Shown piece after piece: positions 1 to 36,979 of a DNA stretch of 64,000 nt. Within the stretch, counting starts at the first letter, position 1, and every line of letters starts with the position of its first letter. The notes under the pieces are model-generated. The model did not search any database and was not told where the DNA came from. It worked only from the letters and a program-made list of their open reading frames with translations. The DNA lies in contig JBPOIU010000022.1 in the NCBI GenBank assembly GCA_052034255.1, forward strand, positions 7,354-71,353, given 5' to 3'. Both the position numbers and the translations under genes were made by a program. Source of the DNA: Planctomycetota bacterium. Its GTDB lineage: Bacteria > Planctomycetota > B15-G4 > JADJEK01.

Positions 1-225
1 CAACAGGCCGCGCCACATGTAGACGCGCGTCACCGGCACGCCGTCGTCGACCGTCTCCTCGCGCCGCACCAGCGCGGCGTCGGCGCGATACGAGGGCTCG
101 AACGTGAACACGCGGACGTCGTGCCCGGCCGTGCCACGCAGCTTCAGCGCCAGGCGTTTCGCGTAGAGCTCGGTACCGGTCGTGTACTGCGGCGGGTATT
201 GGTGCGTGACGAACACGATCCGCAT
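1..225 (-). CDS. Glycosyltransferase family 4, N-terminal fragment; gene continues past the window start
   Basis: Minus-strand translation from the ATG at 225 gives MRIVFVTHQYPPQYTTGTELYAKRLALKLRGTAGHDVRVF, a typical GT4 N-terminus paralogous to the downstream GT4s. Its start overlaps the stop of the next gene (TGATG). Confidence 0.5.
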   Translation of the reverse strand, partial: MRIVFVTHQYPPQYTTGTELYAKRLALKLRGTAGHDVRVFTFEPSYRADAALVRREETVDDGVPVTRVYMWRGLL

Positions 226-1646
226 CAGCGTCGCCCCCCGGCGAAGTCGGCATAGTTGCGCAGCAAGTCGTTCGCGTTCTCGTGCACGGTTCGTACTCGC
301 GGTCGGGAGTCCGCCAAGCGCGCGGCGAGCCCTGGCTCGTGCGCGAGTCGGTGCAAGACCAACCGCAATGCATCGGCGTTTCCAGCCGGGAACAGGAGTC
401 CGTCGACCCCGTCCGAAACCGCCTCCTCGAGGGCTCCGATGCAGGACGCAGCGACCGGCAGTCGTGCGAGCCAACCTTCACGCAAGGTCAGACAGAACGC
501 CTCGTACCACAACGACGGCACGACCAGAGCGTCCAGGCCGGCGAGGATGCGCGGCAAGTCGTGGGCGCCGTACCGGCCATGGAAGGCGATTCGCTCGTGG
601 CCGGCCGTCGCCGCCCGGAGCTTCGCGCCGTAATCCGTGACCTCGTGCCAAGCGCCGGCTTCGCCCCAGACGTGGAGTTCCGTCGCCGGGTCCGCGAGCT
701 TCACGAACGCGTCGATCAGCACATGGACGCCCTTGGTCGGCAGTACCGAGCCGACGTAGCCGAAGCGGAAACGCGGCGACGGCGTGCGCGTGATGCCGCG
801 GAACGGAGCATCGTCGAGCCCGTTCTCGACCACGACGATGCGTTCGGGCGCGATGCCATAGCGCTCGAACACGAGCTTCGAATGGCGCGACGGCGTGATC
901 AGGCGCTCGACGCGACCGAGCAGCCCCCGCATCCAGGTGTGGTACTGCGCGAGTTGTTCCAAGTCCCGACGGTCGCGCTCCGCCTCCGGCACGTTCGGTC
1001 CGTCGCGGCCGAGGCCGAACCAGCCGCTCCACATCTGGGGCAGGCAAGTGGCACATCGCGCGACGTCGACGTCCTCGCACAGGAACAATTCGCGCGTCAT
1101 TCGTTGGCCGCGCGGACATCCCATCCAGAAGTCATGCAGTGTCATGACCACCGGCAAGCCTCGCGCGCGCGCCGCGTCGATGAGATCGGTCGACAGGCAC
1201 GTCAGATGATGGACGTGGACCACGTCGAACGACTGCCGCGCGAGTTCGGCATCGAACGCGGCGCGGATCGACGCGTTGCGCACGATGCCCGCGAAGTCGA
1301 CGCAGTCCGAGAAGCGGTAGTTCAAGCGCACGACCGCGACGCCGTCGACGCGATAGCGCTCGATCGCGAACTCCGGCCGAGTCGCGTCCGCGCCTCGCGT
1401 GAACACGACGACCTCGTGCCCGAGGCGGGCGTACTCGCGCGCCAGCGCGTGAACGTGGAGTTCGACGCCGCCGATGCTCTCCGGCAGGTAGGCCGCGGTG
1501 ACGAAGAGAATGCGCAAGGGAAGTCCGCTCGTCGCGGGTCGGGAAAGGCGCACAGCATAGACCGGGCCTTGCCCGCTCGCATGGCGTCGCTCGTCAGCCG
1601 CCGTCACCGCATGCGCGACCGAGCACGCGCTCCATGTCCGCCGCAT
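225..1646 (-). CDS. Glycosyltransferase family 4 (Cys4-insert paralog)
   Basis: The 473-aa ORF contains RILFVTAAYLPESIGGVELHVHALA, DVVHVHH, MTLHDF, a CPRG..C..CATC Cys4 motif, and a C-terminal GT-B domain. The true start is probably internal (GTG near 1553 or TTG near 1517), because the first ~40 aa are not GT4-like. Confidence 0.8.
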   Translation of the reverse strand: MRRTWSACSVAHAVTAADERRHASGQGPVYAVRLSRPATSGLPLRILFVTAAYLPESIGGVELHVHALAREYARLGHEVVVFTRGADATRPEFAIERYRVDGVAVVRLNYRFSDCVDFAGIVRNASIRAAFDAELARQSFDVVHVHHLTCLSTDLIDAARARGLPVVMTLHDFWMGCPRGQRMTRELFLCEDVDVARCATCLPQMWSGWFGLGRDGPNVPEAERDRRDLEQLAQYHTWMRGLLGRVERLITPSRHSKLVFERYGIAPERIVVVENGLDDAPFRGITRTPSPRFRFGYVGSVLPTKGVHVLIDAFVKLADPATELHVWGEAGAWHEVTDYGAKLRAATAGHERIAFHGRYGAHDLPRILAGLDALVVPSLWYEAFCLTLREGWLARLPVAASCIGALEEAVSDGVDGLLFPAGNADALRLVLHRLAHEPGLAARLADSRPRVRTVHENANDLLRNYADFAGGRR

Positions 1647-2934
1647 CGGTCGCGATCGACTTGACCGCCGGGATCGTCGCGCGCAGCCGATCCACCACCG
1701 CGGGATCGGCGACGAGGCGGAGAAGCACCGCGGCCAAGTCGGCGGGGTCCGCGCGTCGGAACGTCAGTCCGCCGCCGGAAGCGACCAATTCGCGCATCCC
1801 GCCGAGATCACTCGTGACCACCGGGACGCCGCACTGGAATGCCTCGTGGATCGTCAGTGGCGAGTTCTCGAACCAGATCGAAGGGACGACCAACGCATCG
1901 AGGCCCGTGAGGAAGCGCGGCGCGTCGCCGGGCGCCAACGGACCGGCGAGGTCGATGCCGGCTCCGGGCGCGATCGCGGCGCGCAAGCGCTCGACGTAGT
2001 CCGGGAACCAATCGAGCGCGCCATGGACGACGAGCGTCGCGCTGCCGCGCGGCAAGCGCTGGAACGCGTCGATCAGCACGTCGACACCTTTGTAGTCCGC
2101 GATCGTGCCGAGATAGCCGAGCCGCAACGGCGCCCCCGCACCGCGCGGCGCACGTGGAGGCGCGGACAGTGGCGGGAAGCCGTAGTCGCTGACGACGACT
2201 CTCGCCGCGTCGAGTCCGAGTCCGATCATCTGGTTCGCGAGGAATTGCGAGGGCGCGACGAACGTCTTCACCGCCGCGACGCCATCGCGCATCGCGAAGA
2301 ACCGCGTTTGCGCCGCGCGCGCGAAGTAGCGCAATTCGCCGAGAGACGCGAACGGATCGGCGCCATCGGCACCATCGGCGCCGTCCGGGTAGCGCTGGCG
2401 CTGGATCGGATACGGCGCGAGGCATTGCGCGCACGTCGCGAACGGGATCGGATCGCACAGGTTGCCGGCCGGATCGAGCAGCAAGCCCCCCCGCGGACAC
2501 GCGAGGAAGTACTCGTGCAGCGTCATGACGATCGGGATGCGCCGCGCGACGGCTTGGCGGATCAGGCCCAAGCCGAAGTAGACGAGGCTCTGGACGTGCA
2601 CCACGTCGGGGGCGACCTCGTCGAGCACCGCGCCGATCGCGGCATCCATGCGCCGATCGTCGTAGAGATCGCGGATGTCGTCGAAGTGGCGGTTGTAGAC
2701 GACTTCGTGGAACGGCAGCCCGTCGTAGACGCCGGTCGACAGCGCGAATTGCGGGCGATCGAGCCGCTTCTCCGTGAACACGACGCGGACGTCGTGGCCG
2801 CGCGCCGCGAGCGCCTTCGCGAGGTGGTAGGTGTAGATCTCGGAGCCGGCGCGATGGTCGGGCAAGAAGTCGTGGATGGCTTCGAGGATGCGCACGCGGC
2901 GAACTCCGAGGGCTCGATGCCGCGACCATAGCAA
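1594..2934 (-). CDS. Glycosyltransferase family 4 (Cys4-insert paralog)
   Basis: The 446-aa ORF contains RILEAIHDFLPDHRAGSEIYTYHLAKAL, DVVHVQSL, MTLHEYFLACPRGG..C..CAQC, and a GT-B C-domain. The exact start is uncertain; a GTG at aa 11 or 14 is possible. It contains a DGADGADGAD triplet repeat. Confidence 0.8.
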   Translation of the reverse strand: MLWSRHRALGVRRVRILEAIHDFLPDHRAGSEIYTYHLAKALAARGHDVRVVFTEKRLDRPQFALSTGVYDGLPFHEVVYNRHFDDIRDLYDDRRMDAAIGAVLDEVAPDVVHVQSLVYFGLGLIRQAVARRIPIVMTLHEYFLACPRGGLLLDPAGNLCDPIPFATCAQCLAPYPIQRQRYPDGADGADGADPFASLGELRYFARAAQTRFFAMRDGVAAVKTFVAPSQFLANQMIGLGLDAARVVVSDYGFPPLSAPPRAPRGAGAPLRLGYLGTIADYKGVDVLIDAFQRLPRGSATLVVHGALDWFPDYVERLRAAIAPGAGIDLAGPLAPGDAPRFLTGLDALVVPSIWFENSPLTIHEAFQCGVPVVTSDLGGMRELVASGGGLTFRRADPADLAAVLLRLVADPAVVDRLRATIPAVKSIATDAADMERVLGRACGDGG

Positions 2935-3087
2935 GCCGGCCTGGGAGTCCGACGGCTGGCACGCGAGGAACGCGCGCGCGGGGATCGCCGCCGAGCGGCA
3001 AAGCGCGATCGCGACATGCGCTGCGTACGATGCGCCCCACAGCGCCCGGTTCCAGAGTTGGTCCAGAGTCCGTCGGTTGGGGACGTC

Positions 3088-4476
3088 ATGCGTGCGTGGT
3101 TACGGCGCGGCCATCACGGTCCCGTCGGCGCTTTGTTTTGGATCGTCGCCACGGTGCTCGGGTGGCGCGGTGTGGAGCCGGTCGCGACGTACTTCTACGT
3201 CGCGGCGTGGTACCCCGCGCTGCTGGTCGTCGATGCCGCGACGGCGCGCAAGCGCGGCTGGTCGATGCTGTCCGACCGTCCGCTCGCGTTGTTCTGCCTG
3301 TGGGCGTGGTCGACACCGTTCTGGCTGTTCTTCGAGGTCGTCAACCTGCGCCTCGAGAACTGGTACTACGTCTTCGCCCCGGCCGACCCACTCGCGGGCC
3401 GCCTGTTCCTGATCGCGTCGTTTTCCACCGTGCTGCCCGCTCTGTTCCTCGTCGCCGATCTGCTCGACGCATACGGCTGGTTCGAGAACACGCGCATTCG
3501 CCCGTTGCCGCTGACCATCGCGACGCGCACATGGTGCTTCGTCGCCGGCGTGGCGATGCTCGTGCTGGTGTTCGCGCTCCCGACGCTCGCGTACCCGCTC
3601 GCGTGGGGCTTCCTCGTGCTCCTGCTGGAGCCGTTCAACGTCCAGCCGCGCTGGAACAGTCTGCTGCGCGACCTCGCGTTCGGGCAGCCCGGCCGACTGT
3701 TGCGCCTCGTCGTGGCGGGCCTCGCGTGCGGCGCGTACTGGGAGATCATGAACGTGCCGGCGCGCGCGCGCTGGATCTACACGATCCCGTTCTTCGACAG
3801 GACGCTCGGCGTCGAGATGCCGCCGCTCGGCTTCCTCGGCTTTGCGCCCTTCGCGCTCGAGGCCTACGCCTTCGTCCGCGCGCTCGAGATCCAAGGTCTG
3901 TCGGTGCCGTGGGAGTCCGGCCCTGGTCGAGCACGCCCGCTCGCACCGTGGTTCCGGCTGTTCGCCGTGCCAGCCGTGGTCACGGCCACGGCGCTGCTCG
4001 GCATTCGAGCGCTCGAGCGCTGGACGGTGGACTCCCGCCAGTCGACCACCGCGGAACTCCCGACCGTGACCGCGCGGGAGGCCCGGATCCTCGACCAGCT
4101 CGGGCTCGCCGACCCGCGCGACCTAGCCGTGATCGACGCCGCGTCGACGCCGTTGAACGCGACCGACCTCGCGAAAATCCTGTTCGTCGAGGACGAACGT
4201 GCCACGGACCTGATCACGCTGGCGCGGCTCGCCGAGTTCCGAGGCCTCGGAGCGCAGCGCGCGGCGCTGCTGTTTCGCGTCGGCATCCGGTCCGTGGCCG
4301 ACCTCGCCGCCGCCGATCCGGACCTGCTGCTCGATCGTTTGGCCGCGCTTGGTCCACCGTCGCGAACGGTTCGCCCCCAGCGGGTTCTGGGCTGGATTCG
4401 GGCTGCGCGCAAGGCCATACGTGATCGGGTGATCGGTCCGGATACGAGCTTCCGTTCCGAGGCCGATGCTCCCTAG
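3088..4476 (+). CDS. Polytopic integral membrane protein with C-terminal tandem helix-hairpin-helix (DUF4332-like) domain
   Basis: Start is at MRAWLRRGHHGPVGALFWIV. There are about 8 hydrophobic segments, including WYYVF and LFLVADLLD. The C-terminus reads LDQLGLADPRDLAVIDAASTPLNATDLAKILFV...FRGLGAQRAALLFRVGIRSVADLAAADP, which is HhH-like. It is divergent from the GT4 gene at 2934. Confidence 0.6.
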   Translation: MRAWLRRGHHGPVGALFWIVATVLGWRGVEPVATYFYVAAWYPALLVVDAATARKRGWSMLSDRPLALFCLWAWSTPFWLFFEVVNLRLENWYYVFAPADPLAGRLFLIASFSTVLPALFLVADLLDAYGWFENTRIRPLPLTIATRTWCFVAGVAMLVLVFALPTLAYPLAWGFLVLLLEPFNVQPRWNSLLRDLAFGQPGRLLRLVVAGLACGAYWEIMNVPARARWIYTIPFFDRTLGVEMPPLGFLGFAPFALEAYAFVRALEIQGLSVPWESGPGRARPLAPWFRLFAVPAVVTATALLGIRALERWTVDSRQSTTAELPTVTAREARILDQLGLADPRDLAVIDAASTPLNATDLAKILFVEDERATDLITLARLAEFRGLGAQRAALLFRVGIRSVADLAAADPDLLLDRLAALGPPSRTVRPQRVLGWIRAARKAIRDRVIGPDTSFRSEADAP

Positions 4477-4595
4477 AATCCCCGCCTCGTCCGTCGAGCC
4501 ATCCGGTTCGTCCACGATGCGGGGCGCTCACGCGCCGCGCTCCCGGACGTCGGTGTCGTGTGAGTCCTCTCCTCTCGATCGCAAGGACCCATCGC

Positions 4596-6104
4596 ATGAA
4601 GAGCTTCGTGAATCGTTTCCGGATCGCCGTGCCCTGCTTGTTCCTCGCCGTCGCGGCCGGTTCGGCCGACGCAGCGACGATCAACGTTCCGGCCAACTTC
4701 CCGACGATCCAAGGAGCGATCGACGCTGCGCTCCCGGGTGACACGATCGTCGTCGCCAAGGGTGTGTACGAAGAAGTCCTCAACATCCCGAACACGCTCG
4801 TCGGTCTGACGCTGCGCGGCAAGAAGGGTGCGATCTTGGACGCTCGGCCGGCCGGCGTGGACTCCGGCGCCGGCATCGTCGTCGTCGCGAACTCCGTGAC
4901 GGTGCGTGACCTCGTCATCCGCCATGCGGCGGACATCGTCAGCAACGACGGCGACGGGATCCGGGTGACCGGAACCGGCTTCATCGGCCGCAACCTGACG
5001 ATTCAACACTGCGAAGGCAGCGGCGTCGCGCTGGGCGGTACGGGCGCATTGCTCGACAACGTGACCATTTCCGGCACGTCCGATGGCGTCAACTTCGGCG
5101 CCGCGACCACGACGCTGCGTCGCGTGCGGACGAACGGAACGTCGTCGAACGGCATCGATGGAACGGGCGCCACGGCCGTGATCGACCGGTGCACCGTCCG
5201 CGACAGCGATGGATTCGCCATCGTGATCACGGGTGCCACGGCGACGCTGACGAAGAACACGGTGACCAACTGTGGTTCCACGGCGATCGTGATCACTGGC
5301 GCCGGCGCGACTCTGACGCAGAACACCGTGACCCTCTGCAACGACGGCATCTCCGTCGCGGGCAACAACGCCGCGGTGACCAAGAACAAGCTGCGCTCGG
5401 TGGACGGCACCGGCATCGCCCTCACCGGGGATACCGCCAACATCCAGTCCAACGTGATCGACGACGCCGACACGTGCGTCGCGATCCTCGGCAACGGCAA
5501 CTCGGCGATCGGAAACACCGGTCGACGCTCGGCGGAAGGCATCACGGCCGTCGGCACGACGAACAACGTCGGCGACAACGTGCTGCGCGACCAGTCCAAC
5601 GTCGGCATCTCCATCACGGGTGCGAGTTCCGGAACGTCGGTGATCGCCAACGACATCCGTAACTGCGTCGCCGAGGGCATCGTCTGCACGTCGGACACCG
5701 TGACGATCGCCGGCAACGCTCTGCGCGACTGCGGCACGTTCGATCTCGCGGCGCTAAGCGTCACGGCGAACTCGAACGACGTCACCGGCAACAACGTCCG
5801 CAACGCGCGCTCCGACGGCATTCGCGTGAGCGGCAACTCGAACTCGGTCGCGGCGAACGTCTGCCAATCGAACCTCGAGGACGGCATCGACATCGAAGGC
5901 GGCACGAACAACACGCTCAGCAACAACAACTGCTCGTCGAACTCCGCCGAGGGCATCGAGAACAACGGCGGCAACACGACGATCCAGAACTGCACGGCGC
6001 AGAAGAACCGCACCGACATCGCCAATGACGGCACGCTCGGCGCGTTCAACTTCAACGTGTTCACGACGGGTGGTCAGGCCACCGCGCCCGAAGTCGACGG
6101 CTGA
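4596..6104 (+). CDS. Secreted right-handed parallel beta-helix repeat protein (pectate-lyase / NosD-like fold)
   Basis: MKSFVNRFRIAVPCLFLAVAAGSADA is a signal peptide. About 20 periodic xxGxxIxGxxxTLTxNTVTNC coils follow, and the protein is rich in N, T and G. Its composition is unlike the high-GC artefact ORFs. Confidence 0.7.
   Translation: MKSFVNRFRIAVPCLFLAVAAGSADAATINVPANFPTIQGAIDAALPGDTIVVAKGVYEEVLNIPNTLVGLTLRGKKGAILDARPAGVDSGAGIVVVANSVTVRDLVIRHAADIVSNDGDGIRVTGTGFIGRNLTIQHCEGSGVALGGTGALLDNVTISGTSDGVNFGAATTTLRRVRTNGTSSNGIDGTGATAVIDRCTVRDSDGFAIVITGATATLTKNTVTNCGSTAIVITGAGATLTQNTVTLCNDGISVAGNNAAVTKNKLRSVDGTGIALTGDTANIQSNVIDDADTCVAILGNGNSAIGNTGRRSAEGITAVGTTNNVGDNVLRDQSNVGISITGASSGTSVIANDIRNCVAEGIVCTSDTVTIAGNALRDCGTFDLAALSVTANSNDVTGNNVRNARSDGIRVSGNSNSVAANVCQSNLEDGIDIEGGTNNTLSNNNCSSNSAEGIENNGGNTTIQNCTAQKNRTDIANDGTLGAFNFNVFTTGGQATAPEVDG
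5221..5352 (+). repeat. Intragenic tandem duplication of ~66 bp (two beta-helix coils)
   Basis: The segment atcgtgatcacgggtgccacggcgacgctgacgaagaacacggtgaccaactg is followed by atcgtgatcactggcgccggcgcgactctgacgcagaacaccgtgaccctctg at about 80% identity. Both encode IVITGA(T/G)ATLT(K/Q)NTVT. Confidence 0.4.
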
Positions 6105-6133
6105 TCCGACCGCTGCGCGAAGTGACGTGAAAC

Positions 6134-6168
6134 GGGGGCCGCTCTCGACGTAGAGCGGCCCCCTTTCG
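6134..6168 (+). terminator. Rho-independent terminator hairpin after the beta-helix gene
   Basis: The sequence gggggccgctc-tcgacgta-gagcggccccc forms an 11-bp GC stem followed by tttcgc, 30 nt after the stop at 6104. It lies between convergent genes. Confidence 0.5.
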
Positions 6169-6226
6169 CATCACATGTGGATCCGCCGCGGCGCGGAATG
6201 GACGGCGCGCGCGCCGACGAACGCGT

Positions 6227-7639
6227 TCACTTCGGCGGAGCGTCCACGCGCGCCCGCAGGGCGTCCTCGAGCTCGTGGATGCGCCGCCGCTGTTCGGCCA
6301 CGATGTCCTCCCACTTCTCGATGCGCACCAACTCCTGGAACGCCGTCTCGCGCCGATTCCATTCGTCGCGCAGACGTTCCGCGTCGTCGCGCACGGGTGG
6401 CGGAGGCGTCGGTCGCCGCAGCGCGTCGGCATAGATGGCTTCGAGCCGGGACGCGTGCTCCACGAACGTCGCGAGCCGCGGCCCTTCCGCCGTCCGCATC
6501 GCATCGAGCCGCCCCGGCTCGTCGACGAGCAGCGCGAGCTTCCGGGCGAGATCGTCCGCGTCGTTCGGCACGAACGTCAGCACGCGTCCGGTCGCCCGTT
6601 CCGCGAGAGCGCCCGCCGCCGCGGCGAGGATCGGAACTCCGAACAGCGTGGCCTCGTCGAGGATGAACGAGTACGACTCGCGCGCGAGTGTCGGGATCAC
6701 CGCCACGTCCATCGTCGCGCCTTCGAGGTCGGCGACGCGAAAGCGGCCGTGGAAGTGGACGTCGGAACCCTCGGCCAGGAGCTCCAGGCGCTCCTTGTAC
6801 TCCGGCGACGACGCTTCGCCATGCAGGTGGACGGCCAAGCGATCCCGCCGCGCGCACCGCCGCACGGCTTCGAGCAGCACGTGCGCGCCCTTCAGTGGAT
6901 GCAGATGGCTCCAGTACGCGACATGGAGTTTGCCGTCCGCCCCGCGGGCCGGCGCGGTCCGAGGCGTTTCTTCGAGCGAACCGTGCGGCAACGTGACGAG
7001 CTGCGCCGCGGTGTAGCCGAGCATGCGTCCGAGGAACGTCCCGTGCGACGTCGAAGGGGTGATCACGCACGCGGCGAGTTCGAGCTCGCGCAGCATGTCC
7101 GCGCGATAGCGGCGAATCGCCGCCGTGATCTCCGGGTCGCGTTGGAAGCGCCAGCGCGGCACGCACGTCAGGCACGCGTCCACGCTCATCGGCCGTTCGC
7201 ACGGCTCGTCGCCGTTCGTTCCCTTGAGCCGGAACACGCGCGGACAACTCGGATACAGATCGTGCGCGGTCACGACCGCACGGACTCCGAGGCGCGTCGC
7301 GATGGCGACCAGGTTCGTCGACAGCCGGATCCAATGATGCACATGCACGAGATCGGGGCGCAACGAGCCGATGTGGCGCTCGAACACCTGCGACACGCCG
7401 GGGTGGTACCCCTTGTCCCAGCGGTCGAAGTACAGGTCGTTGCGGTGCACGCGCGTGACCGGCACGTCGTCGACGACTCCGCGCTCGACTTCGAGGTCCT
7501 TGCGCCACTCGAGCGAGCCGGCGAACACGTGCGGCTCGTGGCCTGCGCGCCGTTGCTCACGCACGAGGCGCGCCACGTAGAGCTCGGTGCCGCCGATGAC
7601 TTCGGGCGGATAGCCGTGGACGACGTGCAAGATCTTCAC
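6227..7639 (-). CDS. Glycosyltransferase family 4 (Cys4-insert paralog) with C-terminal coiled-coil tail
   Basis: MKILHVVHGYPPEVIGGTELYVARLV, DLVHVHHW, VVTAHDLYPSCPRV..C..CLTC. The C-terminal ~70 aa are charged and helical (ERLRDEWNRRETAFQELVRIEKWEDIVAEQRRRIHELEDALRAR). Confidence 0.8.
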   Translation of the reverse strand: MKILHVVHGYPPEVIGGTELYVARLVREQRRAGHEPHVFAGSLEWRKDLEVERGVVDDVPVTRVHRNDLYFDRWDKGYHPGVSQVFERHIGSLRPDLVHVHHWIRLSTNLVAIATRLGVRAVVTAHDLYPSCPRVFRLKGTNGDEPCERPMSVDACLTCVPRWRFQRDPEITAAIRRYRADMLRELELAACVITPSTSHGTFLGRMLGYTAAQLVTLPHGSLEETPRTAPARGADGKLHVAYWSHLHPLKGAHVLLEAVRRCARRDRLAVHLHGEASSPEYKERLELLAEGSDVHFHGRFRVADLEGATMDVAVIPTLARESYSFILDEATLFGVPILAAAAGALAERATGRVLTFVPNDADDLARKLALLVDEPGRLDAMRTAEGPRLATFVEHASRLEAIYADALRRPTPPPPVRDDAERLRDEWNRRETAFQELVRIEKWEDIVAEQRRRIHELEDALRARVDAPPK

Positions 7640-9057
7640 GAACCGACCTCGCTGACGGGGTGCCGACCGACGAGCGCCATCAGTTCCTCCTCGACGCGAT
7701 CGACGTGCGCATCAAGCGTCAGCGGCTGCGGCGCCGCGGCGCGCATGCGCTCGATCACGGCACGGTCCTGGACGAAGACCGCGAACGCGCGGGCCAGCGC
7801 TTTGGCGTCTCCCGGCGCGAACAGCAGGCCGTCGACGTCGTGGCGCACGGCCTCGGCCATGCCACCGAGGTTCGACGCGACGACCGGCACGCCGGCGGCG
7901 CGGGCTTCTTGGATCACGATCGGAAAGTTCTCGAACCAGATCGACGGCACGACCAGCACGTCGATCTGCGCGAACGCCTTCGCCAGATCGCGGCGCGGCA
8001 CCGGGCCCTTCAGATCGACGTCGAGACCCTGCGCCAGTTGTTCGAGGCGCGCGACGTAGTCCGGGTAGTAATCGCGGCGTCCGAACACGAGCAGCCGGCC
8101 GTGGCCCTTCATGAAGCGCATCGCTTCGATCGCCACGTGGACGCCCTTGTGCGGCGCCAACGTGCCGATGAACCCGAACACGACGTGGTCGTGCTCGCGG
8201 CGCTTGCGCTCGGCGTGCGCGGGCATCTCGATCCCGAGCGGCAATACGTGGATCTTGCGCTTCGGCAAGCCGAACGCGGCCATGCCCTCGCGGACGGTGT
8301 TCGACGGCGCGAGGAATCGATCGACGTGGCGCGCGAGCGCGTGGAACGCCTTGTCGCGACGCTTGAACAACGGCGCGAACGAGTCCACGCGCGCACGACG
8401 CGCGCGATCCGCCTTCTCGTCCTGCGTCGCGCTCGGCGCGTCGCCGCCGCCGCGCACGAGCGGCAATCCGCGCAAGACGTCGACGACCGGCGCGAGATCG
8501 AAGCCCGCGACGTTCTTCGTCCAGCGGATCGCCGAGATCATGCGTTGCTGCAGCTTCGTTTGCGCGAACTTGAAGTCGGCCATGCAGTTCGCGCACTTCT
8601 TCGGCTCGGGGCCGGTGCAGACGCGCTCACCGTGTTCGAGCAATTGGCCGAAGCGCGCGCACGCGAGGAAGAAGTCGTGCAGGGTCATCAACACCGGGAT
8701 GCCGCGTTCCTTCGCGATGGCGGGCAAACCCATCGACAACAGCATCACGTGCTGCACGTGGACGACGTCCGGCCGGACGTCGTCGAGCACCACGCGGAAC
8801 TGACGCTCGACCTCGGGGTTCGCGAAGGTCTCGTCGAACGACGCGTAGAGCAGGTTGTTCGTCAACACGTGACACGGGATGCCGTGCCACTCGCGTCGCT
8901 CGAGCGTGTAGTTGTGCCGCGACAACACCTTCTCGGTGAAGAACAGGTGCACGTCGTGGCCACGTTGTTTCAACGCCCGCGCGATGCTGTCGGTGTAGAC
9001 CTCGGTGCCGGCCGAGTGTCGTGGCAAGAAGAAGTGCAGGACGAGCAGCACTCTCAT
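7636..9057 (-). CDS. Glycosyltransferase family 4 (Cys4-insert paralog)
   Basis: Start is at MRVLLVLHFFLPRHSAGTEVYTDSIARAL, which is aa 160 of the listed ORF; the upstream extension is a compositional artefact. DVVHVQHV, MTLHDFFLACARFG..C..CANC. ATGA overlap with the upstream GT2 stop. Confidence 0.8.
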   Translation of the reverse strand: MRVLLVLHFFLPRHSAGTEVYTDSIARALKQRGHDVHLFFTEKVLSRHNYTLERREWHGIPCHVLTNNLLYASFDETFANPEVERQFRVVLDDVRPDVVHVQHVMLLSMGLPAIAKERGIPVLMTLHDFFLACARFGQLLEHGERVCTGPEPKKCANCMADFKFAQTKLQQRMISAIRWTKNVAGFDLAPVVDVLRGLPLVRGGGDAPSATQDEKADRARRARVDSFAPLFKRRDKAFHALARHVDRFLAPSNTVREGMAAFGLPKRKIHVLPLGIEMPAHAERKRREHDHVVFGFIGTLAPHKGVHVAIEAMRFMKGHGRLLVFGRRDYYPDYVARLEQLAQGLDVDLKGPVPRRDLAKAFAQIDVLVVPSIWFENFPIVIQEARAAGVPVVASNLGGMAEAVRHDVDGLLFAPGDAKALARAFAVFVQDRAVIERMRAAAPQPLTLDAHVDRVEEELMALVGRHPVSEVGS

Positions 9058-10067
9058 GCGCGCCGTCCTGGCTTCAAGAAGCGCGCGACGCGCTCGGGCG
9101 TGACTGCCCGGCCGAGGAAGCCGTCCTTCAGCCCGATCCACTTCGCGACCGCCGCCCCCGCGCGGCCGCGGCTCGCGGCGACGACGAACGCGAGCGGCCA
9201 GGCGAGGACGTCGAACACGAACAGCCCGATCCAACCGCGGACGCTGCCGTGGCGACGCAGGAAGTGCACCGAGTTCACGGCGTTCATGTACTTGCGCGCC
9301 GCCGTGTAGCCGCCGCCCGTCGACGCGGACGCGTCGTGGACCGCGACCGCGCTCGCGACGTAGCGATTCTCGAAGCCCGCGCGCGCGGCACGCTGCCCGA
9401 ACTCGACGTCCTCCATGTAGCAAAAGAAGGATTCGTCGAAGACGCCCGCGCGCTCGAACACCGTGCGCCGCACGAGCAGCGCGGCGCCGGGTACGTAATC
9501 GACCGTCGAGTCCTCGCGGAAGCGGCCGTTCCACACCCGGCCGTGACCGCGCAGACGCGAGACGTTCTGTCGGTGGGTGACTTCACCACCCGCTGCCCAG
9601 ATCCGCCGCTCGGCGCCGGGCAACAGCACCATCGGCCCCACCACGCCGACGTGGTCGTCCGCGTCCAGCGCGGCCTCGAGGCGCGCGACGCAATCGGGGT
9701 CGACCTCGATGTCGTTGTTCAGCAACAGCACGCGGTCGGCGCCGCGCTCCAACGCCAGTCGGATCCCGAGGTTGATTCCGCCGCCGTAGCCGAGATTCGA
9801 ATGCGCGACGTGAAGTTGGACGTGCGGTAGCCGCGCCCGGATGCGCGCGACCGAATCGTCGTGCGAGGCGTTGTCGACGACCACGATCGCCGGCGGGCGC
9901 GGACGTGAACGCTCGACCGCGGCCACGCAACGCAGCGTGTGCTCTGCTCCGTTCCAATTGAGCACGACCGCGACGGTGCCGCCGCTGACCCGGGGTGCCG
10001 ACATCGGCCGCGAGTCTACACCCCGACCGCGGCGAAGAACGCGACGCCCTCGACGCCGATTCGACAC
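9054..10067 (-). CDS. Glycosyltransferase family 2 (GT-A)
   Basis: VAVVLNWNGAEHTLRCVAAV...IVVVDNASHDDS...LLNNDIEVDPDC...YMEDVEFGQRA gives the DxD and ED signature. A C-terminal amphipathic or TM tail is present. An alternative start is MSAPRVSGG at 10004. Confidence 0.75.
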   Translation of the reverse strand: MSNRRRGRRVLRRGRGVDSRPMSAPRVSGGTVAVVLNWNGAEHTLRCVAAVERSRPRPPAIVVVDNASHDDSVARIRARLPHVQLHVAHSNLGYGGGINLGIRLALERGADRVLLLNNDIEVDPDCVARLEAALDADDHVGVVGPMVLLPGAERRIWAAGGEVTHRQNVSRLRGHGRVWNGRFREDSTVDYVPGAALLVRRTVFERAGVFDESFFCYMEDVEFGQRAARAGFENRYVASAVAVHDASASTGGGYTAARKYMNAVNSVHFLRRHGSVRGWIGLFVFDVLAWPLAFVVAASRGRAGAAVAKWIGLKDGFLGRAVTPERVARFLKPGRRA

Positions 10068-10160
10068 GGCCCCACGATCGTCGGCCTCGCGCTTCCGGCG
10101 GTCGCTCGAGCGGCCGGGGTCAGGCTCGCGCCAGCCGAAGCGGCGAATCGTCCGAGCCGT

Positions 10161-11228
10161 TCACGGGACGAGCCACGAAACGCAGGCCCACCAGGCGCGC
10201 AGCAGCCCGGACAGCACGCGTTCGCCGAAACTGCCGGTCTTGCCGCGGTCGATCCGCGGCGAAAACGTCAGGTCGGGCGCCCCGAGCAGGCGGCGGTCGC
10301 CCTGCTTGCGGAACTTGGCGATGGCCTTGCGCTGGGCGCGGATCTCCGGGAACTGCGCGATCAGTGACGATTTCGCCTTCACGTATTCGCCCAGCGCGCC
10401 TTCGCGCAGCGCGAACACGACATACGCGAGCCCGAGCAACAGCAGGCCCGGCAAGGCGAGCACCAGCGTGCGCTTTCGATAGTTCTTCAGCACCACGCGC
10501 CAACGATTGCGCGAATGCAAGAACAGGCGTCGCGCTGGGTAGCTCGGACCGCCGCGGAACGAGATGCCGGCGGTGCCGGCCCGATGGTCGACCAACGCGT
10601 CCGGCAGCGCACGAATGCGCCAGCCCGCGAGCCGCAGTCGGTACGAAAGATCGTGATCCTCGAACAGGATGAAGAACGCCGGGTCGTAACCGCCCACGGC
10701 ACGCAGCTTCACCCGATCGACGAGCGCCGCCAGCGAGATGAACGCGTCGACGTCGGCGGCTTCGTGCGTACACCGATCGAGCGGCACGAAGAAATGGCGC
10801 AGCGCCATGACGCCCGCGTAGTGGAACGAGCCGCCGTCGTAATGCACGACGTCCGGTCGCGCCGCATCCAGCGCACGCGGTGCGGCCACCGCGACGTCCT
10901 GCTCGCGCTCGAACTCCAGCAGCAAGCGCTCGACACAGCCGTTTCGCACCAGCACGTCCTGATCGAGCTGGAACACGAGGTCGTGGCGCGCCTCGCTCAA
11001 CCCGACGTTGCGCGCCGGGCACGGACCATCGTTGGTCGGCATCCGGATCACGCGGACGCGGGGGAACTCGGCCGCCACCATCTCGGAAGTGCCGTCGGTC
11101 GACGCGTTGTCGACGACCAGGATCTCGGCGAACGGGAACTGCCCGGGCTGGTACAGCGACCGCAGACAGTCGCGCAGGTCGTCGCGACCGTTGTACGACA
11201 CGATGGAGACGGACACCGGGACGACCAT
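10161..11228 (-). CDS. Glycosyltransferase family 2 (GT-A) with C-terminal membrane anchor
   Basis: VSVSIVSYNGRDDLRDCLRSL...ILVVDNASTDGTSEM...FQLDQDVLV...FEDHDLSYRLRLAGW, followed by C-terminal hydrophobic segments LVLALPGLLLLGLAYVVFAL. Confidence 0.75.
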   Translation of the reverse strand: MVVPVSVSIVSYNGRDDLRDCLRSLYQPGQFPFAEILVVDNASTDGTSEMVAAEFPRVRVIRMPTNDGPCPARNVGLSEARHDLVFQLDQDVLVRNGCVERLLLEFEREQDVAVAAPRALDAARPDVVHYDGGSFHYAGVMALRHFFVPLDRCTHEAADVDAFISLAALVDRVKLRAVGGYDPAFFILFEDHDLSYRLRLAGWRIRALPDALVDHRAGTAGISFRGGPSYPARRLFLHSRNRWRVVLKNYRKRTLVLALPGLLLLGLAYVVFALREGALGEYVKAKSSLIAQFPEIRAQRKAIAKFRKQGDRRLLGAPDLTFSPRIDRGKTGSFGERVLSGLLRAWWACVSWLVP

Positions 11229-11231
11229 GCG

Positions 11232-14200
11232 TCACTTCACCGGCGGTTCGAAATCGGGAGCGCGGCAGACGACGCGGTGACGCAGGCAATACGGCAGCAT
11301 CGCGAGCGCCGCGAACGTCGCTTTGGTCGCGATCCACAAGCCACCCGGCGTCTGCTTCACGGCCTTGTCGATGCCGATCGTGCCGCTGGCGTCGTTGGCG
11401 TTGCCGCGCTTCAGTCCGAGGCCTTTCAGCCCGAGCACCCACGCCGCGCGGACGATCTGACCGATCGAGCAGTGCTTGAACGCGTACAGCCAGAAATTGC
11501 GCACGTGGAAATAGAGCGAGCGCTTGCCGCCCTTCATGCCGAACGGCGTCTTGTGGAACAGCTCGGCATCGGGGCACATCACGATGCGGTGACCGAGGCG
11601 CAGCACGCGACTCGCGAGATCGCGCTCGTTGCCGTAGATGAAGAAGCGCTCGTCGTAGTAGTCGGCGGCCTTCAGAACGTCGCTGCGCGCCAACGTCCCG
11701 CAACCGCGGAACGTCGCCATGTAGCGCTCGCGCTTCTCGGCCAGCAGGAACTCGGGCGGCATGCCGGGCTCGACGACCAACGACGACACCATCGCGGTCG
11801 AGTTCGGCTCCGCCAACATGCGGTCGTACAGGCGGCCGAGCCATTCGGGCGGCGCGACCACGTCGTCGTCCATGATCGCCGTGAACGGCTGCGTCGCGGC
11901 CTTCATGCCGAGATTGAACGTCTCGCAGGCTCCGGCCTTGTCGTGCGGCATCTCGATCAGCGTCACCTGCGGGAACTCGCGCCGGATCATCGCGGCGGTG
12001 CCGTCCTTCGACGCGTTGTCGACGACCACGATCTGCGCCGGTCGCGCCGTCTGCCGCGTCAACGCCAGCAAGTTCTCGCGGACGTCGGCGCACTTGTTCC
12101 ACGTCGAGATCACGCAACTGACCGGGACTTCGCGCGAGCTCGGGGCGGCCGGCGCGGCGGTTGGCGCGACGACATCGGTTGCCGAGGGGCGAACGGCGGT
12201 CGCACCAGCGACGAACGCTCGCGCGCGCGCGGCGAGTTCGGCCCACGCGAACAGGCGATCCGCGTCGATCTCGAGATAGGCCTCGGCCGCTTCGACGCCG
12301 CGCACGTCGACGTTGACCGTGCGCGCGCGATTCGCGGTCAGCGTCTTGTCGGTGACGTCGAGGTACGCGCGTTGGCTCGCGAACGCGTTCAGCGCGGCGC
12401 GCTTCTTCGGGAGCTGCGCCGTGACGTCGAGCAAGTACGACGCCGGCTGCGGCTCGTTCACTTCGTACAGCACGACGCGCGGGCGCATGCCGCTCTGCAA
12501 GAGCGCGTGCGCCGCGAGCCAGTACGTCGCGCGATGATCCGGATGGTGTTCCCACGGCGACGGCACGTACAGCACGTCGGGCCGCAGCGTTTCGAGCAGG
12601 CCGGTGAACCCGGACAGGAATGCCCCGTCGGGGCGCAACGCGCCATCGGGGAAGTCGAGCGCGTGGAACTCGGTGAGGCCGAGCTCGCGTCCCGCGGCCC
12701 GCGCTTCTTCCTTGCGCACCTCGGCGATGCGGCCGCGCTCCTTGCCGTCACGATCCCCGCCGGCGCCATCGGTGACATGGACGACGGCCACGCGATCGCC
12801 GCGTTGCGCGTGAAGACCCAGGGCTCCGCCCGCGCCGATGATCTCGTCATCGGGATGCGGCGCCAGCACGACCACCCGACCGCCGGGCACGCGCGCGAAC
12901 TCGGCGAGCGGCACGAACGTGAAGCGCGGATCGAACGGCGGGATTTCTTGCGGGGGCAGCGGGCCTGCGGACATCGGGGCGGACATCGGGGCGGTCGTCG
13001 ACGGAGGTGGCGAAGCGTAAAGGGCTTCCAACGTCACGGCATGGTCCGAAATCGCGAACCGACGCGCCGCGGTCCGCGCGCGGGCGGCCGCCAGCTCGGC
13101 CGGCCGCTGCAGCAGGCGCATGAGCAGGCGCGCGAGCGCGTCCACGTCCCCCACCGCGACCACGAAACCGGCGTCGCCGGCTCGCTCGGGCGCAGCGCCG
13201 CGGTCGGCCACGACCACCGGGATGCCGAGCGCGAGCGCCTCGTCGACGACCAACGAATAGGTCTCCGCAGCCGCGCTGAAGAACACCGCGACGTCGGTCT
13301 CCGCGGCGAGGCGCTGCAGTCGATCGGAGTCGAACGCTCCTTCGCGGACGACCTCGAGCGGGGCCAGGCGCTCGAGTCGGCCGAGCTGCTCGCGTTCGAA
13401 GACGGCATCCGTCGCGCGACCGAGCAACGTCAGTCGCAGCCGCGCCCGAACTTCCGCAGGCAGTCGCTCGAGCGCGTCGATCACCCGATCGACGCCCTTC
13501 ACGGGAGCGAGGTTGCCCCACCACGCGATCCGGAGCCGCCCCGCGGGATCGGCACGCCACGCTTCGGGATGGAGCGTGCGCGTCAGCCCGAGCGGCAACA
13601 CGTCGATCGGAACGACTTGCGGCAGGATGCCGGAATCGCGCAGCGTGCGCGCGGCCGCGGCCGACGGCGCCAACACCTCGTCGGCGGCGCGCAACTCGGC
13701 GTCGAAGAACGCGCGGCGCGCGAGCAGCTCCGCGCGCGGTCGCGCCTCGTCGCCACCGAATTCCGGCGCGCAACACGTCACGCAGCGCTCGAGCGGCACC
13801 GGCGTGTCGTCGCCGCAGAAGCCGCCGTCGTTCCGCACCATGAAGAAGCGCGGACACGCGGCGAGGAAATCATGCAGCGAGACGATGGTCCGCGCGCCGA
13901 ACGCTTTGGCGTCGGCGACCAGCGGACAGAACAGGTTCATGTAGTGATGGACGTGGACCACGTCGGGCGCGAATGCTCGCAGGCAATCCGCCCACCGCGT
14001 TCGGACCTCCGGCACCTCGAGGTGCGCCGAGAAGCGCGGTCCGCGATGCAAGACGCGCCACACGCGCACGCCGTGATGGGTCTCTTCGAGGACGCCGTCG
14101 CCGTCGCGCTCGCTGCCCGAGAACACCGCGACCTCGTGGCCGCGCGCCGCCTGTTCGACGACCAGCGCGGCGAGGTACGCCTCGGTGCCGCCGACGAACT

Positions 14201-14237
14201 CCGGCGGGAAGTTGTGGACCGCGTGCAGGATCCTCAT
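11232..14237 (-). CDS. Tri-domain fusion: GT4 glycosyltransferase - LmbE/PIG-L-type N-acetylglucosaminyl deacetylase - GT2 glycosyltransferase (1001 aa)
   Basis: One uninterrupted frame. aa 1-408 are GT4 (MRILHAVHNFPPEFVGGTEAYLAAL, DVVHVHHYMNLFC, SLHDFLAACPRFF..C..CVTCC). A Pro-rich linker with the tandem duplicate PMSAPMSA follows. aa ~440-690 are LmbE (VVVLAPHPDDEIIGAGGA, HPDHRATY). aa ~715-1001 are GT2 (VSCVISTWNK, IVVVDNASKDGT, DDDVV). The first 261 codons of the listed 1262-aa ORF are artefact and overlap the real LmbE gene in another frame. Confidence 0.7.
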   Translation of the reverse strand: MRILHAVHNFPPEFVGGTEAYLAALVVEQAARGHEVAVFSGSERDGDGVLEETHHGVRVWRVLHRGPRFSAHLEVPEVRTRWADCLRAFAPDVVHVHHYMNLFCPLVADAKAFGARTIVSLHDFLAACPRFFMVRNDGGFCGDDTPVPLERCVTCCAPEFGGDEARPRAELLARRAFFDAELRAADEVLAPSAAAARTLRDSGILPQVVPIDVLPLGLTRTLHPEAWRADPAGRLRIAWWGNLAPVKGVDRVIDALERLPAEVRARLRLTLLGRATDAVFEREQLGRLERLAPLEVVREGAFDSDRLQRLAAETDVAVFFSAAAETYSLVVDEALALGIPVVVADRGAAPERAGDAGFVVAVGDVDALARLLMRLLQRPAELAAARARTAARRFAISDHAVTLEALYASPPPSTTAPMSAPMSAGPLPPQEIPPFDPRFTFVPLAEFARVPGGRVVVLAPHPDDEIIGAGGALGLHAQRGDRVAVVHVTDGAGGDRDGKERGRIAEVRKEEARAAGRELGLTEFHALDFPDGALRPDGAFLSGFTGLLETLRPDVLYVPSPWEHHPDHRATYWLAAHALLQSGMRPRVVLYEVNEPQPASYLLDVTAQLPKKRAALNAFASQRAYLDVTDKTLTANRARTVNVDVRGVEAAEAYLEIDADRLFAWAELAARARAFVAGATAVRPSATDVVAPTAAPAAPSSREVPVSCVISTWNKCADVRENLLALTRQTARPAQIVVVDNASKDGTAAMIRREFPQVTLIEMPHDKAGACETFNLGMKAATQPFTAIMDDDVVAPPEWLGRLYDRMLAEPNSTAMVSSLVVEPGMPPEFLLAEKRERYMATFRGCGTLARSDVLKAADYYDERFFIYGNERDLASRVLRLGHRIVMCPDAELFHKTPFGMKGGKRSLYFHVRNFWLYAFKHCSIGQIVRAAWVLGLKGLGLKRGNANDASGTIGIDKAVKQTPGGLWIATKATFAALAMLPYCLRHRVVCRAPDFEPPVK

Positions 14238-14947
14238 GGCGTTCCGGCGCGTGCGTCCGGCTCGAGCGCGACGAATGCCTCGCCGTACGTCGCTCCCTTG
14301 TCGAGGAACACCGCGCGATACGCGTTCAGACCGGACACGAAGCGGCGGATGTCGGTGTGCTCGAGCTGACTCGGATAGCAGTCGAGCGCCGCCATCTTCG
14401 TGGCGTAGACGCGCGAGACGTCGACGATCCACGTCGCGCGCGACGCGCTCCAGACTTCGTAGCCGAAGGCGCGCGGCGGACGATCGAGTTGCGCGAGCAC
14501 GCGCTGCGTCAGCACTGCGGTCGTGTAGTGGTCCGAGTGCTGGTCGCCGAGATGCGGTGCGTAGACCACGTCGGGCGCGAACCGCACGAGCGCGTCCTTC
14601 AACCGCGGCAGGATCGCGCCGAGGTCGTCCTCGTGGACGCGGTAGTTGTCGGGGAAGCCCCAGAACTCCTGCGCGGCGATCCCGAGCACCTTGGCCGCCG
14701 CGCGCGCTTCGGCCTGCCGGCGCGCCGCGTACGCCGGCTTGTCCTCGCGCCCGGTCGGATCGCCCGACGTCCCGGCCGTCAGGAACAGCACGTGGATTTC
14801 GTCCCCGAGCTCCGCATGCAACCGGATCGTGCCTCCGGGTCCGATCGTCTCGTCGTCGGGGTGTGGAGCGAGCACGAGCACGCGACCCCGCGCAGGCGGC
14901 GCGCTCAAGCGGATCGGCGGAGCGGGAGGTTCGAGGTAGCGCGTCAT
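14234..14947 (-). CDS. PIG-L/LmbE family deacetylase (standalone paralog)
   Basis: VLVLAPHPDDETIGPGGTIRLHAELGDEIHVLFLTAG and the DQHSDHYTTA motif form the Zn-binding His/Asp pattern of the MshB/BshB/PIG-L fold. Its stop overlaps the ATG of the fusion gene (ATGA). Confidence 0.8.
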   Translation of the reverse strand: MTRYLEPPAPPIRLSAPPARGRVLVLAPHPDDETIGPGGTIRLHAELGDEIHVLFLTAGTSGDPTGREDKPAYAARRQAEARAAAKVLGIAAQEFWGFPDNYRVHEDDLGAILPRLKDALVRFAPDVVYAPHLGDQHSDHYTTAVLTQRVLAQLDRPPRAFGYEVWSASRATWIVDVSRVYATKMAALDCYPSQLEHTDIRRFVSGLNAYRAVFLDKGATYGEAFVALEPDARAGTP

Positions 14948-15110: not shown

Positions 15111-15141
15111 CGTGAATCAATCGGATGGATTCACGTTTTCT
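15111..15141. other. Stem-loop abutting the GNAT gene stop
   Basis: cgtgaatc-aatcggatg-gattcacg is followed by ttttct on the plus strand. On the coding (minus) strand it is preceded by an A-tract and is not followed by a U-tract. Confidence 0.3.
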
Positions 15142-16154
15142 CAGTAGATGTCCGAGTCCCCCATCGTGAAGAACCAATGATCCTGCGCCCAGCGTTCGTC
15201 GAACTCCGGGCCGAACACACGGATGCAGAGGTTGAACGTCGACGGATCCGGTGCGAAACCGAGAGTGCGAAGCGTCTGCGCGAGGCTCGACCAGCCGGGA
15301 GCCCAGGTCTCCATGCGCGACTTCCCGGCATCGCGCGCGAGCATGGCCGCGCGTTGCGCAAGGCCGGCGACGGCCTCGCGATCCTCGCCCTCGACGATCC
15401 AGTCGACGAGCGGCGCGAGCGGTTTGTCGAACCACTCGGTGCGCAGCACCAGCACGCCGCGCAAGCGCCCCGCCGCGCGCGCTTCGAGCACGCGATAGCG
15501 GAACGACGGACAGCGGGAGTAGCGCCACTCGAGGTACGCATGATCGCGGCATAGCACCAGCGGCAGCTTCGCCATCGTCGCGTCGAACAACGCGTCGACG
15601 TCCGCTGGAATCGAGGCGACCTCGCGGACCTGGACCGCATCCCCACCCATCGGTCCGAGGTAGTCGATCCAGTCCTGCGCGAAGTCGCGGACCAGCGCGA
15701 CGACCGGCGTGTGGACCGGTCGGTAGTCGAGGATGCGCGTGCCGATGCGGAACGCCTGCGGATTCGGGAAGCCGTAGACGATGCGATCGCGATCCGGTCG
15801 CCCGTAGGCGTCGAAGAACGCGCGCGCGAGCGACAGGAACAGGCCCTCCTTCTTCAGCACGCGACGCCACGCCGGTGCGACGCAGGTGTCGACCGCTTGC
15901 GACCCGAGCATCGGCGCGCCGCGATCGAGCCATAGCGCCGGGATGGCCGTGTAGTTGCCGACGATGGCTCCGCTCGCGTCCTCGGCGACGAACGTGTGGT
16001 GCCCGTGCGGGTTGTGCGCGAACTGCCACTGCCAGTGCGCGAGCGTGCGCGGCGTGAACGTCGGATTGCCCTCGGCGAACACTGCGTTGAACAGCGCGAG
16101 GATCCCGTGTTCGTCGCCGGACCGATAGGGCCGGATCGTGAAGTCGGAGCTCAT
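15141..16154 (-). CDS. GNAT-superfamily acyltransferase, ~337 aa (two-lobe, MshD/Eis/FemAB-like size)
   Basis: Start is at MSSDFTIRPYRSGDEHGILALFNAVFAEGNPTF, aa 101 of the listed ORF. AWRRVLKKEGLF resembles the (R/Q)xxGxG/A motif. The C-terminus is NLCIRVFGPEFDERWAQDHWFFTMGDSDIY. It is a paralog of the gene at 17211. ATGA overlap with the kinase stop. Confidence 0.6.
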   Translation of the reverse strand: MSSDFTIRPYRSGDEHGILALFNAVFAEGNPTFTPRTLAHWQWQFAHNPHGHHTFVAEDASGAIVGNYTAIPALWLDRGAPMLGSQAVDTCVAPAWRRVLKKEGLFLSLARAFFDAYGRPDRDRIVYGFPNPQAFRIGTRILDYRPVHTPVVALVRDFAQDWIDYLGPMGGDAVQVREVASIPADVDALFDATMAKLPLVLCRDHAYLEWRYSRCPSFRYRVLEARAAGRLRGVLVLRTEWFDKPLAPLVDWIVEGEDREAVAGLAQRAAMLARDAGKSRMETWAPGWSSLAQTLRTLGFAPDPSTFNLCIRVFGPEFDERWAQDHWFFTMGDSDIY

Positions 16155-16993: not shown

Positions 16994-17210
16994 GACGCGA
17001 GAGCTTCGAACTTCCACCGGCCCGCATCAACTGCCGGCTGAAAAAGACCGGCCCGACCGGCACGCGCTCCAGTGGCCCGCGGGCAACCGGGGGACGCGTC
17101 CCGCCTCGACCGGCCTCCGCGGTCCGTCGGCGGCCGAGCCAAGTTCAAGGCGCGCCGGAGTTCGTGACGATGGGCTTGAACCCACGCCGACGAAGGTCGA
17201 AGCTCCCCGC

Positions 17211-32527: not shown

Positions 32528-32583
32528 AGGCGCCGAGGCGCGCTCGTCGGTGCGTACGACCGACAGTTCCCACTGGGCCGCGA

Positions 32584-36853: not shown

Positions 36854-36979
36854 CCGCGAGGATCCCCCGCGAGCTTCGGCACTCTTTGCCGCCGGACTGA
36901 AACGAGCGTGCTGGACAGCTCGGCGAACGGCGAACCGATCGGTAGCCGATCGTGCGTCCGCTCCTTATGTTCCGCCCCC

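Follow-up and report, generated by a model that had tools for sequence, protein, structure and literature searches.

The closest described relatives of the enzymes considered here are two proteins encoded on pSymB of Sinorhizobium meliloti, which exact look-up identified as WgeD (formerly ExpE4) and WgeG (formerly ExpE7). Both are listed as galactosyltransferases of galactoglucan (EPS II) synthesis (PMC1403797), and ExpE7 gives its name to the CDD model cd03823, "ExpE7-like" (PMC4701759). In another glycosyltransferase of the GT-B fold, the heptosyltransferase TibC, an inserted four-cysteine (Cys4) finger binds one Fe3+ tetrahedrally, and the enzyme needs this finger to assemble into oligomers, to recognize its substrate, and to be active (PMC4358343). 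Here, we analyzed a 64,000-nucleotide stretch of DNA from a Planctomycetota bacterium (contig JBPOIU010000022.1 of GenBank assembly GCA_052034255.1, positions 7,354 to 71,353; hereafter "the window"), in which the left 16 kb hold a run of minus-strand genes, among them those for paralogous GT4 glycosyltransferases, within a genome of ~69% G+C. The five complete paralogs (A–E) share a conserved Cys4 insertion that probably serves as a structural metal site.

Five GT4 paralogs with a Cys4 insertion

The paralogs are encoded, all on the minus strand, at 225–1646 (A) and 1594–2934 (B), both given as maximal open reading frames (ORFs), at 6227–7639 (C, with a GTG start), at 7636–9057 (D, 473 amino acids, the protein chosen for modelling), and at 11232–14237 (E, a 1001-residue fusion whose GT4 part lies at ~12990–14237). 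In all five, matches to PF13439/PF13579 in the N-terminal domain and to PF00534/PF13692 in the C-terminal domain lie above the Pfam cut-offs (for A, 1e-27 with PF13439 and 2.4e-20 with PF00534). The catalytic Lys and the EX7E motif are likewise present throughout, and the corresponding residues of D (K304, E376, and E384) are invariant in an alignment of 72 sequences comprising D, 67 relatives, and the four other paralogs. For D, AlphaFold predicts a GT-B fold (predicted local distance difference test, pLDDT, 92.6), and the closest Foldseek matches of this model are MshA, sucrose-phosphate synthase, BshA, HepE, and GlgA, each with a probability of 1.0. By these domains, motifs, and fold, the five genes are identified as encoding GT-B glycosyltransferases of CAZy family GT4, with a predicted retaining mechanism.

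The original prediction held that these GT4 paralogs share a Cys4 cluster directly after an (M)TLHDF-type motif, and this was borne out in all five complete genes. The motif reads C-x12-14-C-x7-10-C-x2-C and starts 6–7 residues past the (T/S)xH(D/E) strand; the spacing first proposed, C-x13-14-C-x8-10-C-x2-C, had been counted one too many. Individually, the minus-strand knuckles are CPRGQRMTRELFLCEDVDVARCATC in A (1044–1118, C-x12-C-x7-C-x2-C), CPRGGLLLDPAGNLCDPIPFATCAQC in B (2422–2499, C-x13-C-x7-C-x2-C), CPRVFRLKGTNGDEPCERPMSVDACLTC in C (7163–7246, C-x14-C-x8-C-x2-C), CARFGQLLEHGERVCTGPEPKKCANC in D (8584–8661, C-x13-C-x7-C-x2-C, formed by C133, C147, C155, and C158), and CPRFFMVRNDGGFCGDDTPVPLERCVTC in E (13773–13856, C-x12-C-x10-C-x2-C, with an extra Cys directly after). 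Other blocks proposed as common to the family differ in places: B has MTLHEYF and DVVHVQS where (M)TLHDF and DVVHV(H/Q)H were expected, and the N-terminal GG(T/V)E(L/V)Y reads GGVELHV, without the Tyr, in A. As proposed, the same N-terminus recurs in a sixth, partial GT4 gene at 1–225 on the minus strand (MRIVFVTHQYPPQYTTGTELY), of which the window holds the 5' part (~75 codons) and which has its Cys region outside the window.

With only 29–33% identity among A–E, the motif that they share cannot be put down to recent duplication. When the five are aligned, the first, third, and fourth Cys each occupy an invariant column and the second Cys of E is 1–2 columns off; when the two S. meliloti relatives are included, all four columns are invariant. 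The positional conservation claimed for these cysteines also stands in the 72-sequence alignment, where they occupy four of the 20 invariant columns and an Arg two residues past the first Cys occupies a fifth. Cys makes up 1.46% of the residues in this alignment, and 288 of the 492 cysteines are found in the four columns, a concentration far beyond chance. A large group of D orthologues has Asn or Gln in place of the His of TLHDF (H127; TLNDF, TLQDF), with the four Cys and the Arg still invariant. This His is usually seen as a GT4 active-site residue, and its replacement is thus unexpected.

The knuckle opens a longer insertion, which in D spans residues 126–250 (8308–8682, minus strand), continues into helices, and is without counterpart in solved GT4s. 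The solved GT4/GT5 enzymes compared were MshA (3C4Q/3C48), BshA (5D00, 6N1X), Anabaena HepE (4XSO), the M. hassiacum mannosyltransferase (7QSG), sucrose-phosphate synthase (6KIH), and P. abyssi GlgA (3FRO). They share with the window GT4s the two-Rossmann GT-B fold, the N-terminal Gly-rich loop, the His after strand beta5, the Lys, and the EX7E motif, but none has the Cys4 segment. Profile and fold comparisons agree with the claim that canonical GT4s lack the insert. First, the PF13439 match breaks at profile position 108 of 170, just ahead of the first Cys, in A and D, and needs ~40 extra residues in C and E. Second, a profile of the five paralogs aligns with solved GT4s up to "tlHd" and resumes 55–70 profile positions later, the distance from the His to the (P)S motif being ~45 residues in 7QSG versus 68–124 in the window paralogs; a profile restricted to the segment from beta4 to the Cys4 motif found no match in the PDB beyond "HDF". 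Third, the Foldseek targets of D (12–18% identity, E down to 4e-18) are ~100 residues shorter.

In the model of D, residues 126–151 are irregular except for a two-stranded hairpin (140–141/145–146); C147 comes right after this hairpin, C155 and C158 lie on a helix (152–159), and long helices run onward to residue 244. Block pLDDT across the mostly irregular segment 131–160 is 86–93. Modelled in isolation, the insert showed the same hairpin-plus-helix pattern (pLDDT 88.8), and a Foldseek search with it against the PDB returned no structural neighbour (best E = 5), a result that speaks neither for nor against a metal site. The insert had been called zinc-ribbon-like, a term for two CxxC (or CPxC) knuckles on two beta-hairpins. 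With one CxxC instead of two knuckles, located on a helix, and with a short beta-hairpin between its first two Cys, which stand 12–14 residues apart, the insert should not be named a "zinc ribbon".

Distribution and variation of the motif

WgeG and WgeD are ~30% identical to the window paralogs, the same level as among the paralogs themselves, and share with them the insertion position, all four Cys columns, the EX7E motif, and the Lys. The window genes are thus probable new members of the catalogued ExpE7-like GT4 subfamily, an assignment that rests on the alignment with WgeG and WgeD and on the Cys4 insertion after beta5 (a definition derived here). Two positions past the first Cys, both S. 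meliloti proteins have a His where the window paralogs have the Arg.

The insert had been presented as unusual, yet it is widespread, and its carriers include WgeG and WgeD. A 69-position profile, built from the five paralogs and compared with 1.84 billion cluster representatives, matched 6930 clusters at 50% identity (E ≤ 1e-3) in Bacteria and Archaea, although some GT4s in the weaker tail of these may resemble the profile in its beta4/beta5 part only; 1226 clusters matched at E ≤ 1e-10. Among the best 150 of the 6930, the Cys4 regular expression was matched by 141 of 144 new proteins. At least 594 species genomes contain an orthologue of D, most of them from Planctomycetota and others from Thermodesulfobacteriota, Rokubacteria, Binatia, Omnitrophota, Acidobacteriota, and Kuenenia. 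A tblastn search of A against plasmids added matches in Sinorhizobium, Ensifer, Azospirillum, Paracoccus, Rickettsia, and the archaeon Halomarina; WgeD ranked 19th in the resulting table, ordered by coverage × identity, and the matches inspected in S. meliloti, Azospirillum, and Halomarina carry the Cys4 motif. Judged by these matches, the Cys4 loop is a hallmark of a very large, catalogued GT4 subfamily and is not special to this genome. Of the earlier suggestion that the site is specific to the subfamily and has a structural or regulatory role, the specificity holds for the motif, and the regulatory role is unsupported.

Members of the subfamily also occur in several fused or otherwise combined arrangements. 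Many of the proteins matched by the profile have ~1200 residues and contain at least two GT4 modules, with a separate Cys4 motif in each. Many of the matches P0149–P0172, at ~1150–1370 residues, carry two Cys4-GT4 modules, the N-terminal one C-like and the C-terminal one B-like, ~400 residues apart with a spacer without Pfam match, and one protein of 2415 residues (P0183) combines a GT2 with several GT4 modules. Separate genes of the window thereby have fused counterparts elsewhere. On Rickettsia asiatica plasmid pRA1 (5460–7796), a GT4 with the variant spacing C-x16-C-x7-C-x3-C is fused to a radical-SAM domain (CNYACIMC), matching Wolbachia WD0613, which has been described as an ExpE7-like protein with radical SAM/SPASM. 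On a plasmid of Halomarina sp. BND7, a 46-residue "rubrerythrin-like domain" protein (370171–370311) is encoded directly upstream of a Cys4-GT4, a neighbourhood that may be coincidence.

Departures from the motif are few and follow a pattern. Across 80 genome loci, 161 of 174 full-length orthologues of A–E match the Cys4 regular expression, and the 13 others are mostly cut by contig ends or have four Cys at variant spacing. Two degenerate domains, domain 1 of P0175 and domain 2 of P0179, have no Cys in the region and keep the insert length. In P0182 the first Cys is replaced by Arg and an extra Cys stands beside the third (CTCRVC), and a variant of P0179 and P0211, C-x13-C-x3-C-x14-C, still has four Cys, as does the Rickettsia variant. 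Overall, the four thiol residues are conserved, lost, or replaced together, as is generally expected of a Zn(Cys)4 site.

Probable metal binding and its alternatives

Joint loss, a displaced fourth Cys, and variable spacing at a constant number of four are as predicted for a shared set of metal ligands. From these sequence patterns we infer metal binding, and consider it fairly likely that the four cysteines form a knuckle around a structural metal, with Zn(Cys)4 as the likeliest site; the knuckle would stiffen an acceptor-side loop and anchor the variable helical insert. The insertion directly follows strand beta5 of the N-terminal Rossmann domain, with a 25–28-residue Cys4 loop as its constant core: the first Cys usually followed by x-Arg, the second placed after the short beta-hairpin, the last two forming the CxxC on a helix, and a helical segment of variable length after that. 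One metal would be bound tetrahedrally by the four thiolates; Zn2+ is the likeliest candidate, and Fe, which TibC binds, is also possible. In doing so, the metal would stiffen an otherwise irregular loop, holding the His/Asp of the catalytic loop and the invariant Arg at the acceptor side of the cleft, and would anchor the variable helices, which would set acceptor recognition and/or subunit contacts. In the structures of MshA, PimA, and BshA, the N-domain loops after beta4 and beta5 line the acceptor side of the active site, and the Cys4 module therefore probably shapes acceptor recognition, or else a subunit or membrane interface. The N-terminus of the paralogs is strand beta1 itself, without a signal peptide, which places the enzymes in the cytoplasm and makes disulfides unlikely.

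Several observations weigh against such a knuckle. The two Cys-free domains retain the insert length, so the fold may survive without metal. No PDB structure matches the insert, and the putative site fits no classical zinc-finger class, having a single CxxC and first two ligands that lie far apart in sequence (12–14 residues). In addition, the His in place of Arg in WgeD and WgeG indicates that the role proposed for the Arg is not universal.

The metal could instead be iron, in a rubredoxin-like Fe(Cys)4 site as in TibC or in a [4Fe-4S] cluster, with a redox or oxygen-sensing role possible besides the structural one. We regard this as unlikely. It draws on the precedent of TibC, a GT-B heptosyltransferase that binds Fe3+ through the four Cys of an inserted finger, on the frequency of the motif in anaerobe-rich lineages (Thermodesulfobacteriota, Kuenenia, Omnitrophota), and on the fusion of some members to radical-SAM domains. 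However, radical-SAM domains have a CxxxCxxC of their own, and the family is equally present in the aerobes Sinorhizobium, Azospirillum, and Halomarina. Sequence does not separate Fe from Zn, and a choice between a purely structural and a redox-sensitive role is likewise beyond it.

A second alternative, which takes up the earlier suggestion of a regulatory role, would make the cysteines a redox switch, of the thiol/disulfide or zinc-release type, by which polysaccharide synthesis is turned on or off. Four closely spaced Cys beside the catalytic loop would suit such a function, and Zn(Cys)4 redox switches are known in other proteins. This reading is nevertheless quite improbable, given that the gene cluster has no conserved redox partner or sensor across the 80 loci, that the enzymes are cytoplasmic, and that the cysteines are invariant over thousands of enzymes whose partners differ, which points to a structural requirement. 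Finally, it is likewise quite improbable that there is no metal and that the cysteines are kept for packing or for catalytic or acceptor-binding roles of single thiols: the retention of insert length in the two Cys-free domains would fit this, but joint loss, the one displaced fourth Cys, and variants that still have four indicate a shared ligand set and not independent roles, and we know of no need for a thiol in GT4 catalysis.

The gene cluster, its probable product, and known systems

In the direction of transcription, the cluster comprises a GNAT-like gene, a PIG-L gene, E, GT2b, GT2a, D, C, two intervening plus-strand genes, B, A, and the partial sixth GT4. The GNAT-like protein (15141–16454, minus strand; weak match to Acetyltransf_9) stands at the head of the conserved cluster and is without NCBIfam match. 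It is followed on the same strand by a stand-alone PIG-L/LmbE-family deacetylase (14234–14947) and, beyond E, by the glycosyltransferases GT2b (10161–11228) and GT2a (9054–10067), all three supported by Pfam and by synteny. Four-nucleotide overlaps join the PIG-L stop to the start of E, GT2a to D, and the stop of D to the start of C, and the stop codon of A overlaps the ATG (225) of the partial GT4 by one nucleotide, which argues for one translationally coupled operon. The true starts of A and B are probably later than those of the maximal ORFs: homology of A to GT4 begins near 1520, with candidate starts at TTG 1517 or GTG 1553, and B has a candidate start at GTG 2895. Dozens of Planctomycetota genomes show the order GNAT-like, PIG-L, E, GT2b, GT2a, D, C, often continued by B and A, and the glycosyltransferase gene cluster is conserved in this phylum.

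Besides its GT4 part, E contains a PIG-L deacetylase (~12504–12869) and a GT2 (~11772–12119). Its cluster at 90% identity has 19 members, mostly of 997–1001 residues, and in more distant Planctomycetota the GT4, PIG-L, and GT2 parts are separate adjacent ORFs. The order of the parts suggests three consecutive steps, in which N-acetylglucosamine (GlcNAc) is added, de-N-acetylated, and followed by the next sugar. All NCBIfam matches of the cluster proteins were far below the cut-offs (e.g., 82 bits against a cut-off of 182 for BshB1, and 59–65 against 462 for MshA) and provided no family name. Identification of the genes as MshA, BshA, PelF, EpsE, or similar was rejected on these scores, and with no model reaching its cut-off, no specific pathway name applies.

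Further along the window, an ATP-binding cassette (ABC) transporter ATPase with a Wzt C-terminal glycan-binding domain (34723–35937, minus strand) suggests ABC-transporter-dependent polysaccharide export. Two more GT2 genes lie next to it on the minus strand (32584–34053 and 33531–34700, overlapping as maximal ORFs). Two PIG-L domains together with an export ATPase point to a heteropolysaccharide with de-N-acetylated hexosamine, and we infer from the gene content that the operon probably builds such a polymer with mixed alpha/beta linkages.

The two plus-strand genes between B and C encode a membrane protein with a C-terminal DUF4332/HhH domain (3016–4476) and a second protein that combines right-handed beta-helix/NosD repeats with a hydrophobic, signal-peptide-like N-terminal segment (4560–6104). 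In 80 related loci, neither gene was found at this position, and a DUF4332 homologue occurred in one locus only. The idea that the GT4s glycosylate the beta-helix protein, as TibC does TibA, was rejected, because both genes fall outside the conserved cluster. The GNAT-like gene at the head of the cluster forms a divergent pair with another at 16869–18242 (plus strand), both encoding proteins of ~440–460 residues with weak Acetyltransf_9 matches. Other genes of the window encode a MacB/FtsX-type permease (25029–27791, minus strand), a GCS2-family glutamate-cysteine-ligase-like protein beside a RimK-like ATP-grasp protein with an RLAN domain (29062–32573, minus strand), which may work as a pair that ligates peptides or amino acids, an RNase T-like exonuclease with a fused WYL domain (35888–37831, plus strand), a CHASE2 sensor fused to an adenylate/guanylate cyclase (42347–44794, plus strand), and an M48 peptidase (44957–46378, plus strand).

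At the level of gene clusters, the window differs from wge/exp of S. meliloti, which has an adjacent methyltransferase and neither PIG-L nor a GT4–PIG-L–GT2 fusion. Pairs of a GT4 and a PIG-L enzyme are known from mycothiol synthesis (MshA/MshB), bacillithiol synthesis (BshA/BshB), and the glycosylphosphatidylinositol (GPI) anchor (PIG-A/PIG-L). In the window cluster, the GT4s are accompanied by two PIG-L-family domains, of which one is the middle part of the GT4–PIG-L–GT2 fusion E; by analogy with MshA/MshB-type pairs, this suggests the same logic of transferring GlcNAc and then de-N-acetylating it. Unlike the thiol pathways, the window cluster has many more transferases and a Wzt-type ABC ATPase nearby, which points to a polysaccharide and not to a small thiol.

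At the level of the putative metal site, the nearest counterpart is TibC. TibC and AAH are autotransporter heptosyltransferases (BAHT) of a WaaC-like heptosyltransferase family, and their finger is a C-lobe insertion with ligands C339, C342, C358, and C370 (C-x2-C-x15-C-x11-C). The window GT4s have an N-lobe insertion with a different order and spacing of ligands and no sequence relationship to TibC. TibC is proposed as a functional analogue, not a relative, of the Cys4-GT4s, and membership in the group with a TibC-type iron finger (BAHT) was rejected on the N-lobe position, the ligand order, and the GT4 family. Extending the analogy, we tentatively propose, at somewhat less than even chances, that the Cys4 knuckle may be an undescribed GT-B metal-finger module in thousands of bacterial and archaeal GT4s, one on which assembly and/or acceptor recognition would depend entirely and which might be sensitive to metal supply or redox state.

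To our knowledge, GT-B enzymes, retaining GT4s included, are generally regarded as metal-independent, and we found no account of zinc, cysteines, or metal in GT4 or ExpE7-like enzymes, WgeG and WgeD included, in the open-access literature, an absence that is not proof. If a metal is bound, ExpE7-like enzymes would be the first GT4s to depend on a metal, here a structural one, and a metal site by the acceptor side would define a subfamily of ~10^3–10^4 sequence clusters that extends from exopolysaccharide enzymes of rhizobia to proteins of Planctomycetota, Archaea, and Rickettsia/Wolbachia. Dependence on the supply of zinc or iron would then explain the trouble likely to arise in expressing these enzymes, and the Cys4 motif would offer a simple means of sorting GT4s by sequence. 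Such a gain is incremental, in that it refines the annotation and structure of a known enzyme family and adds no new system. Taken together, the GT4 subfamily to which the window paralogs probably belong was already catalogued through ExpE7, and its Cys4 module is conserved, widespread, and absent from solved structures.

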